From sequence record MN850566.1: 64,000 bases of DNA, one strand, 5' to 3'. The notes below the pieces were generated by a model. That model made no database searches and was not told where the DNA came from. It saw nothing but the letters and a program-made list of their open reading frames with translations. A program made the position numbers and the translations under genes. Shown piece by piece: positions 39,061-39,194 of this stretch; position 1 is the stretch's first letter; each line of letters opens with the position of its first letter. This DNA comes from Escherichia phage garuso.

Positions 39061-39194
39061 TCTTTGTAGATAAGTTATTAAGCTTACCTGTGAGTATGCG
39101 ACCACAAAGGGTGAAAGGGTAAATTCTAGATTTAAACCCAACAAGGCACATCGCTACAGACCTTAAGCAAGTCTGGGTAGCTTATCTACAAAGA
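39061..39194 (+). ncRNA. Candidate structured RNA closed by a perfect 14-bp inverted repeat
   Basis: TCTTTGTAGATAAG (39061-74) is the exact reverse complement of CTTATCTACAAAGA (39181-94); the ~106-nt interior contains hairpin CTACAGACC-TTAAGCAA-GTCTGGGTAG. Confidence 0.35.

Follow-up and report, generated by a model that had tools for sequence, protein, structure and literature searches.

A predicted structured RNA beside tRNA-Lys(UUU) in Felix O1-like and related phages

The spacer between tRNA-Asp and tRNA-Lys(UUU)

The window, the entire 64,000-nucleotide stretch of DNA analyzed here, comes from a Felix O1-like phage (Felixounavirus). The region around the element described below, element e, is 96–99% identical to Salmonella phage Felix O1 and similarly identical (96–99%) to many Escherichia, Salmonella, and Shigella phages. 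Felix O1-like phages are classic Salmonella-typing and biocontrol phages. ARAGORN and Rfam locate 25 tRNA genes, all on the + strand, between positions 38045 and 43522, and HNH endonuclease genes are interspersed in the cluster. Element e lies in the spacer between tRNA-Asp and tRNA-Lys(UUU). In Felix O1-like phages this spacer is unannotated or bears spurious "hypothetical protein" annotations; in the Felix O1 RefSeq record it has no feature, and the Felix O1 genome paper describes only tRNAs in the region (PMC3185647). The RNAs reported below are described neither in that paper (PMC3185647) nor in the literature searched. The features of the locus are as follows.

36464–37879, + strand: gene for a 471-aa Ro60-like protein (Pfam DUF2828 and DUF7788), 1.2 kb upstream of e
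37898–38018, + strand: two sigma-70-like promoters, at 37898 (TTGACA-17-TAATAT) and 37989 (TTGACA-18-TAAAGT), called as consensus matches
38212–38287, 38377–38447, and 38833–38912 (approximate): elements a, b, and c, Y-RNA-like, with the CAGCAA module
38697–38774, + strand: tRNA-Asp (ARAGORN), upstream border of the 429-nt spacer
38920–39057, + strand: element d, a YrlA-like RNA by sequence and fold, abutting e with a 2-nt overlap
39056–39199, + strand: element e, a predicted structured RNA
39204–39279, + strand: tRNA-Lys(UUU) (ARAGORN and Rfam), the invariable 3' neighbor of e

No + strand terminator was found between the two promoters and e.

The 471-aa protein was modeled with AlphaFold2 (pLDDT 85.7) and compared to the PDB with Foldseek. 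The top 11 hits are all Ro60, Rsr, or phage Ro60 structures (E = 6.6e-9, TM 0.66) and include Xenopus and human Ro60, D. radiodurans Rsr, and the Ro60 of Thermus phage phiLo. A sequence-profile search against the PDB gave no hit, and the kinship with Ro60 is seen by fold comparison only. The Pfam scan classifies the protein as DUF2828/DUF7788 type rather than TROVE, and in the alignment the DVSGSM MIDAS motif characteristic of a vWA domain is invariant. Homologues are found in 709 phage records, in about 250 of them at 80% identity or higher, and those of mycobacteriophages are annotated "Ro-like RNA binding protein".

In the module shared by elements a–d, an internal loop separates a small outer helix from a 7-bp helix, one G-C pair of which is invariant, and NN-NCAGCAA follows. 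The CAGCAA module, with a helix that co-varies freely, is located beside the DUF2828 gene in all Ounavirinae-like contigs. It has the same place in two IMG/VR contigs (40% and 29% identity in the protein) and in Mycobacterium phage Kingsolomon, Klebsiella phage FBKp34, Aeromonas phage LAh_6, and Listeria phage LP-083-2. The module helix is 93% paired with double-sided changes in six of seven pairs, in a set whose members were picked by requiring a complementary partner. A covariance model (R2) trained on 26 short CAGCAA RNAs from six phage groups, with a, b, and c included and d left out, finds a, b, and c in the window and also d (19.7 bits, E = 0.043 over 64 kb). Element d has a basal helix and the CAGCAA motif followed by V, T, acceptor-like, and D hairpins, and this hairpin order is the published YrlA architecture (PMC4201824). 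The Rfam YrlA model has no hit at d, and it scores the d counterparts of Klebsiella and Mycobacterium phages at 38–40 bits, below the gathering score of 69. Elements a–d belong to a widespread Y-RNA-like family with the CAGCAA motif. An RtcB ligase gene lies nearby in the Listeria phage and an Rnl2 gene in the Aeromonas phage; these neighbors recall the bacterial rsr-yrlBA-rtcBA operon.

A preliminary description of the window reported a perfect 14-bp inverted repeat between tRNA genes. The two 14-mers, TCTTTGTAGATAAG (39061–39074) and CTTATCTACAAAGA (39181–39194), are indeed exact reverse complements 106 nt apart, flanked by tRNA-Asp and tRNA-Lys, but the exact repeat is longer, 19 nt (AATTATCTTTGTAGATAAG, 39056–39074 and 39181–39199). 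At 95% complementarity the repeat reaches 22 nt, and with G·U pairs allowed the helix is 24 bp, of which 19 are contiguous Watson-Crick pairs. Each arm occurs once in the 64-kb window, and the window has no other perfect inverted repeat of at least 14 nt with a loop of 200 nt or less. Dinucleotide-preserving shuffles average 0.055 such 14-mers per window, and just 4% of the shuffles have one or more, which bears out the initial view that the pairing is unlikely to arise by chance. The 154-nt stretch folds at −48.3 kcal/mol (z = −4.8). An assembly artifact is ruled out because blastn matches e, in full or in part, in 236 phage records, with at least 80% of the element covered in 189.

The inverted repeat is the predicted closing helix, P1, of a conserved structured RNA of ~145 nt. 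The best explanation of its modeled fold is a four-way junction, in which the 24-bp closing helix encloses hairpins P2, P3, and P4 and the P4 loop pairs with a junction as a pseudoknot. The predicted parts are listed here.

39056–39079, + strand: P1 5' strand, the extended left arm of the repeat (19 nt exact, 24 bp with G·U pairs)
39082–39086, + strand: J1/2 segment GCUUA, proposed from loop-junction covariation as the pseudoknot partner of the P4 loop
39087–39110, + strand: P2 hairpin, bearing the conserved motif GAGUAUGCG (39092–39100)
39117–39139, + strand: P3 hairpin, GGGUAAAU-UCUAG-AUUUAAACCC, with a palindromic apical loop
39157–39175, + strand: P4 hairpin, CAGAC-CUUAAGCAA-GUCUG, already noticed in the preliminary description as an interior hairpin
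39176–39199, + strand: P1 3' strand, ending 4 nt before tRNA-Lys(UUU)

Conservation and covariation of element e

Copies of e were gathered from 32 Felix-like contigs and several GenBank phages, and they fall into two sequence alleles. Allele 1 is found in the window and in Felix O1, and allele 2 in pSJ21, NBSal004, BPSELC-1, and Moogle- and SUSP-type phages. In pSJ21, element d is 100% identical to that of the window but the interior of e is only 45% identical, which agrees with the earlier characterization of the region as fast-evolving and indicates that e is swapped as a cassette between near-identical phages. The cassette is bounded by the outer ~11 bp of the P1 helix. The alleles differ in the sequence of their stems and keep their loops. 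Among 22 distinct copies from Felix, Moogle, and Susp phages, about 98–98.5% of the alignment cells pair, compared to 26–46% when the 3' partner is slid. Allele 2 alone has five pairs with double-sided compensatory changes. One P1 pair appears as U-A, U·G, and C-G, consistent with stepwise change.

More distant syntenic contigs were fetched through homologues of the upstream protein that are 63%, 57%, 55%, and 54% identical, and this set includes Yersinia phage vB_YenM_P778. Element e is present in 11 lineages of Ounavirinae-like phages in which the flanking Ro-like protein is 54–100% identical. In all 11, e is 142–166 nt long, its P1 helix has 22–30 bp of almost wholly different sequence, and e sits directly 5' of tRNA-Lys(UUU) with a gap of a few nucleotides (4–10 nt). 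The fold z scores range from −3.4 to −6.9. When the 11 lineages are aligned with MAFFT, unguided, RNAalifold recovers P1, P4, and the core of P3. Double-sided changes are found in 16 of the 25 consensus pairs of this alignment, and they affect 9 of 16 aligned pairs in P1 and all six in P4. The expected partner pairs in 84.8% of cells compared to 36–46% for slid partners, and none of 500 shuffles reaches the observed values, a statistic that overstates independence since the sequences compared are kin. The covariation case is still strong despite this kinship because it also draws on the slid controls and on many distinct pair types.

A covariance model (R1) built from the close relatives only was used to search the window and the distant contigs. 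Exactly one copy is found in the 64-kb window. With filters off, R1 locates the expected copy in every distant contig, on the + strand and 5' of tRNA-Lys(UUU). These comparisons show that, in Felix O1-like phages and in more distant Ounavirinae-like ones, purifying selection acts at the RNA level on the predicted structure.

The three interior hairpins are conserved in different ways. The P2 region carries a GRGU(A)KGC motif in all lineages, and the P2 stem varies among them (UGUG/CACA, GGGG/CCCC, CAU/AUG, GCCU/AGGC); alternative pairings of P2 and the junctions exist. A pairing of the GRGU of this motif with an ACYC sequence upstream of the P4 helix is suggestive in some lineages, and alternative complements exist here as well. 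The P3 loop and its closing pairs are invariant in the 22 variants, and the stem co-varies between alleles (GGGU/ACCC versus AGC/GCU; AUUUCCU/AGGAAAU with three double-sided pairs). More distant lineages have GYG-UAACGUU-CRC instead. The P3 apical loop is thus UCUAG here and ACUAGU or UAACGUU in other lineages, usually a self-complementary string. The P4 stems are CAGAC/GUCUG, CAAACC/GGUUUG, CAGUC/GACUG, CUGUUC/GAACGG, GAGAC/GUCUC, AAGUC/GACUU, and CAACC/GGUUG, and the 9-nt P4 loop is conserved as CYUNNRCAA.

The junction that immediately follows the P1 5' strand is complementary to the P4 loop CUUAAGCAA, and loop and junction co-vary. The loop/junction pairs are UAAGC/GCUUA in the window, UUAGC/GCUAA in allele 2 and in lineage L045, UAAGCAA/UUGCUUA in L041 and L044, AAGCAA/UUGCUU in L042, and UGAACAA/UUGUUCA in L046. 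The best Watson-Crick runs sum to 43 compared to 26.9 ± 2.4 for shuffled loops (0 of 5000 shuffles), and each lineage's own junction is the best fit for its loop. No loop fit was found at that junction site in L043 and L047. Because loop and junction co-vary, these data indicate that the P4 loop probably pairs with J1/2 as a pseudoknot. The conserved GCAA end of the P4 loop would then be due to the pseudoknot and not to a protein site.

The strand of e was assigned from its G·U pairs and its context because several lineages have a minus strand that folds nearly as well. P1 holds one to four G·U pairs in every lineage, and these would be A·C mismatches on the opposite strand. The R1 score is 146 bits on the + strand, compared to 31 bits on the minus strand. 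The G·U pairs favor the + strand, that of the tRNAs, as the probable sense of the RNA. Coding potential was considered and rejected: an 85-aa minus-strand open reading frame (38894–39151) has no Pfam hit and contains stops in allele 2 and in L041.

The element is near-universal: a query composed of d and e matches 254 phage records, and the Ro-like protein is at least 80% identical in about 250. Element e was found in Ounavirinae-like phages only; the Ro-like protein and the CAGCAA RNAs are far more widespread. The presence/absence polymorphism that the preliminary description proposed to look for did not materialize in MET-P1-301 and JK55, whose longer matches keep an Asp–Lys spacer of ~430 nt; the extra length in MET-P1-301 is a longer spacer between tRNA-Lys and tRNA-Met. 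One natural phage genome, L018, is the only one lacking e, and there d has also lost its 3' half and tRNA-Lys its 5' part. This deletion arose when the T-arms of d and tRNA-Lys recombined and is not an empty site. Element e is therefore dispensable in at least one sequenced genome.

The suggestion that the repeat marks another structured RNA is strongly supported by the compensatory changes in P1, P3, and P4 across the 11 lineages and by the co-varying pseudoknot. Element e is very probably a selected RNA structure on the + strand. These data show that the Asp–Lys spacer contains predicted structured RNA genes, a YrlA-like RNA and a separate, pseudoknotted e that has no known relative. As such, e represents a structured RNA family not described before, from a phage group that is well known.

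A proposed pathway for element e

We lean towards reading e as the gene for a compact, stable noncoding RNA that is processed from the tRNA precursor and has a structured core closed by P1. Transcription would start at the sigma-70-like promoters at 37.9–38.0 kb and run through e within a polycistronic tRNA precursor. The RNase P cut at the 5' end of tRNA-Lys (39204) would make the 3' end of e, and the 5' end would arise from a cut separating d from e or from RNase III acting within the P1 helix of at least 22 bp. P1 may shield the core from exonucleases or work as a processing stalk. We regard this processing route as likely. The mature core could work in trans by binding proteins as a scaffold; the candidate contact surfaces are P4 with its pseudoknot, the palindromic loop of P3, and the GAGUAUGCG motif, which is invariant. 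Its likeliest partner may be the Ro60-like/Y-RNA ribonucleoprotein system of the phage or a host RNA-processing enzyme. The neighborhood suggests a link between e and the Ro-like system and nothing in e itself shows one; a partnership with the Ro-like protein is possible but rather doubtful.

Three hairpins, a tertiary pairing, and several unpaired motifs are conserved in e, which argues for an interior that is more than a spacer. The structural selection, the fixed position beside tRNA-Lys(UUU), the cassette-like exchange, and the natural deletion variants make e a good candidate for a new functional RNA family. Together with the Ro60-fold gene, e and its neighbors form a compact phage locus for RNA surveillance or processing in a tractable E. 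coli/Salmonella phage, and this makes the role of phage Ro60-like proteins and their RNAs directly testable.

Element e would join the stable structured RNAs of phage tRNA clusters, a kind that is already known. In the T4 annotation, species 1 (rnaC, 139 nt) and species 2 (rnaD, 119 nt) are located in the tRNA cluster on the tRNA strand. Like them, e is of similar size, adjoins a tRNA, and lies near a homing-endonuclease gene. Homology to the T4 RNAs was rejected: with filters off, the best R1 score over the T4 tRNA/rnaC/rnaD region is 9 bits, and the predicted folds differ. The T4 rnaC ends in a tRNA-like T-arm and, unlike e, has no long closing helix, and the T4 rnaC/rnaD locus has no DUF2828 gene within the region inspected. 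The strings common to e and the T4 RNAs are short (GAGUAGCG, AACGUU) and at chance level.

Competing readings

In the first competing reading, e founds a new Y RNA class: it would be the fifth RNA to partner the phage Ro60-like protein and would tether that protein to another factor. Y RNAs tether Ro60 to PNPase. Bacterial Y RNAs are ~100–150 nt long, a long stem of their paired ends encloses a structured interior, and several are encoded per precursor near a Ro60-fold gene (PMC4201824, PMC12135203). The predicted e structure fits this general description in its size (within the ~80–150 nt looked for) and its long end-paired stem (PMC4201824). Like YrlA/YrlB and Yrn1/Yrn2 (RF02553), e lies near a Ro60-fold gene and beside other small RNAs; at 1.2 kb it is within the ~2 kb of a Ro60 orthologue expected of Y RNAs, in a run of Y-like RNAs, and this synteny holds in all lineages. 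Bacteria make several Y RNAs from one precursor, and some CAGCAA RNAs of Klebsiella and Aeromonas phages also have closing stems of ~20 bp. However, the Ro-binding motif is missing from P1 in each form searched (GGUCCGA, GNCGAAN0-1G, or, at this locus, helix plus CAGCAA), and e carries none of these motifs elsewhere. It has no T- or D-like arms and no GGUUCRA T-loop, and the YrlA (RF02553) and Y_RNA models of Rfam give no hit on e, for YrlA even at E ≤ 10. R2, which recovers a–d, finds nothing at e in the window scan and gives meaningless alignments of 6.4 and 5.0 bits for e alone. Unlike Y RNAs, e has a predicted pseudoknot and four-way junction, and the protein beside it is of the DUF2828 type rather than canonical TROVE. 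The end of the P4 loop is accounted for by the pseudoknot, and e is confined to one phage group. We consider this reading unlikely.

The same test bears on P4. The preliminary description noted that the interior hairpin echoes the AGACC/GGTCT stems of a–d. Because e fails the covariance-model test for the a–d family, the echo is not homology; it is a coincidence of the Felix group, and P4 changes freely elsewhere. P4 as a copy of the a–d module was rejected on these grounds.

A second reading confines the function to P1. It would be a processing stalk only, an RNase III or structural signal that parts the Y-like RNAs from tRNA-Lys or forms a 5' leader of tRNA-Lys, and the interior would have no function in trans. 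RNase III stems flanking rRNAs and T7 early RNAs are established precedents. RNase III needs about two helical turns, and the length of the e helix fits. At 24 bp here, P1 exceeds the 20 bp of mostly uninterrupted double-stranded RNA looked for in an RNase III stem, and at 22 bp or more in all 11 lineages it is longer than closure of the junction needs and stops 4–10 nt before the tRNA. Like the stems around 16S and 23S rRNA and the R sites of T7 early RNAs, it would flank an RNA in a polycistronic transcript. A second, unrelated hairpin of 27 bp (40757–40846) stops 1 nt before tRNA-Leu(UAG), which lends some support to the idea that long stems serve processing in this operon. A GAGTATGC string near 40229 is at chance level in an 8-kb search. 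Unlike the RNase III stems, e encloses a 100-nt pseudoknotted core, and cleavage of P1 is putative. The hairpins, the pseudoknot, and the unpaired motifs (GRGU(A)KGC, the P3 loop, and the P4 loop) are conserved or co-varying, which a mere spacer would not need, and the two alleles differ in their stems yet keep their loops. A stalk with an idle interior is quite unlikely, and a processed RNA with a functional core accounts better for the conserved interior.

The core of e could itself be active, which would make e the first of a new functional RNA class and more than a passive hairpin for processing. It might be a self-processing ribozyme or a ligand- or protein-sensing fold that controls maturation of tRNA-Lys(UUU) and the Y-like RNAs, or else an anti-defense RNA. 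This reading draws on the invariant unpaired nucleotides, the predicted tertiary pairing, the location where precursor cleavage must occur, and the lack of an Rfam match: a search of 37900–43700 with Rfam 15, at gathering scores and at E ≤ 10, gave no hit within 39056–39199, self-cleaving ribozymes and riboswitches included. The co-circulation of two alleles would fit an anti-defense RNA. We give an active core only a slim chance.

Selection might instead act on DNA, with the repeat as a cruciform or protein-binding palindrome, a target of recombination or a homing endonuclease, or a replication or packaging signal. The perfect 19-bp palindromic pair, the HNH endonuclease genes interspersed in the cluster, the cassette swapping bounded by the outer 11 bp of P1, and the P3 loop, which is a palindrome as DNA (TCTAGA, ACTAGT, or AACGTT), are consistent with such an element. 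However, a protein-bound palindrome would conserve the sequence of its arms and the opposite is seen: pairing is kept while the arm sequence is replaced. The G·T positions, which are G·U pairs on the + strand, break the DNA symmetry, the interior hairpins and the loop-junction pairing co-vary, and the window has no similar site elsewhere. The protein-binding palindrome offered as an alternative in the preliminary description is thus disfavored, and a DNA-level element of any of these kinds is very improbable.

That e is a degenerate tRNA, or mimics a tRNA as a decoy of the tRNA-Lys anticodon arm for anticodon nucleases would, is still less credible. tRNA-Lys(UUU) is a frequent target of anticodon nucleases. 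The predicted four-way junction is cloverleaf-like and always beside tRNA-Lys(UUU), and the Felix-type P4 (CAGAC-CUU...) resembles the tRNA-Lys anticodon stem-loop (CAGA-CUUUUAA). The mimicry by P4 is largely refuted by its stems, whose changes from lineage to lineage do not follow those of the tRNA-Lys anticodon stems. In addition, the P4 loop has 9 nt and would pair with J1/2, no T- or D-loop signature is present, and ARAGORN and the Rfam tRNA model find nothing in 39056–39199 even at E ≤ 10.

The footprint of a small mobile insertion, such as a MITE, is the least credible of all: the terminal inverted repeats of 19–22 bp around a noncoding interior of ~100 bp and the allelic replacement between close relatives resemble one, but the flanks (...CTGGT and TAATGG...) show no target-site duplication, only one copy of e is present in the window and 5,426 complete E. 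coli genomes yield no match, its covariation with G·U pairs is of the RNA type, the apparently empty L018 genome is a T-arm to T-arm deletion, and e occupies the same locus in every lineage, even where the Ro-like protein is 54% identical.

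The CAGCAA RNA family and the Ro60-fold protein

Elements a to d, the four small RNA elements upstream of the structured RNA element e, belong to a family with a common layout. An outer helix leads through an internal loop to a 7-bp helix in which one G-C pair is invariant, followed by NCAGCAA. Rfam has no entry for this family, and its sub-threshold YrlA matches are confined to the tRNA-like members.

Copies of the family in the window and in related phage sequences (L handles)
Window 38212–38287, family copy
Window 38377–38447, family copy
Window 38833–38912, family copy
Window 38920–39057, family copy (element d)
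L033 3527–3745; L034 3680–3900; L048 3960–4225, family copies
L049 6530–6900; L053 2990–3960; L056 3625–3885, family copies

The family is widespread, and DUF2828 (Ro60-fold) genes adjoin its RNAs in Enterobacteria, Aeromonas, Listeria, and Mycobacterium phages. The corresponding window gene (36464–37879, + strand) encodes a 471-aa DUF2828/DUF7788 protein with the Ro60 fold over its full length, including a helical-repeat ring and a vWA domain bearing the DVSGSM MIDAS motif. A sequence-level comparison with the PDB gave no match. Homologues of this protein have RNA ligase genes as neighbors: an RtcB ligase gene lies 1.3 kb away in Listeria phage LP-083-2, and an Rnl2 gene is nearby in Aeromonas phage LAh_6. 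DUF2828-type Ro-like proteins seem to have their Y-RNA family in the a to d elements and their relatives, perhaps a weightier discovery at this locus than element e.

The tRNA-like core of element d is permuted, and its hairpin order is the YrlA architecture. The Rfam YrlA model misses element d. Co-variation in the acceptor-like stem is seen in other lineages.

Hairpins of element d, in order, within window 38920–39057
First, V hairpin, UUUCU-CCGGUAA-AGAAA
Second, T arm, GAAGG-UUCGAUU-CCUUC
Third, acceptor-like hairpin, ACUCGGC-AGAU-GUCGAGU
Fourth, D arm, GUGU-AAUGGUA-GCAC

An 87.5-kb IMG/VR isolate genome (L018 6300–6630) carries a natural deletion formed by recombination between the T-arms of d and tRNA-Lys. 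Element e is lost entirely, together with the 3′ half of d and the 5′ portion of tRNA-Lys, and a chimeric gene remains.

Other long-stem RNAs and hairpins

More distantly related Ounavirinae-like phages carry a second e-like long-stem RNA, located after the Ro-like gene and ahead of the first tRNA. Its closing helix is ~30 bp, and its interior holds the strings GAGUAGGC and UAACGUU. It has no counterpart in the window, where the two sigma-70-like promoter matches lie in this space.

Second e-like RNA in the distant phages
L042 5842–6025
L043 5803–5993
L047 ~5905–6075

The window does have a second long hairpin (40757–40846; z = −5.0) with a 27-bp stem that includes G·U pairs and stops 1 nt 5′ of tRNA-Leu(UAG). 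It is kept in L018, L041, and L044, where the covariance model of e (R1) matches it at 23–28 bits because the stem is long. It may be a further processing stalk or noncoding RNA. Two stable hairpins (38775–38830; z = −3.6) follow tRNA-Asp and resemble a terminator on neither strand. The string TTTT(T)AGAGGGCT occurs three times in the cluster (within 38775–38830, with similar strings at 40764 and 43602).

Hairpins 3′ of tRNA-Asp, within window 38775–38830
First hairpin, GAGGGGCU.../...AGCCCCUC
Second hairpin, UAAAGAGU.../...AUUCUUUA

T4 species 1 RNA (rnaC, L052 2909–3047) contains GAGUAGCG twice and GAACGUUC once, which recall the P2 motif and P3 loop of e-family RNAs. Model-level similarity between rnaC and the e-family was not found, and the likeness of the strings is probably due to chance.

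Variation in the tRNA cluster

The spacer from tRNA-Lys to tRNA-Met is 4 nt in the window (39280–39283) and ~78 nt in phage MET-P1-301 (L051 629–706). In JK55 (L050 900–982), tRNA-Ile follows tRNA-Lys by 83 nt with no tRNA-Met annotated between them. Rfam calls a tRNA at window 40181–40259, barely over the gathering score (31.7 versus 29 bits), and ARAGORN finds none there; tRNA-Arg(UCU) of related phages occupies roughly the same part of the cluster. Window 39943–40179 gives weak tmRNA and permuted-tmRNA matches far under threshold.

Open reading frame between tRNA genes
Window 39369–39863, HNH-type endonuclease, 164 aa, annotated 'HNH endonuclease' in Felix O1

This reading frame matches nothing in Pfam at E ≤ 0.01, and its 3′ end overlaps the 5′ end of tRNA-Ile (39857). 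In several relatives without it, tRNA-Ile comes directly after tRNA-Met.
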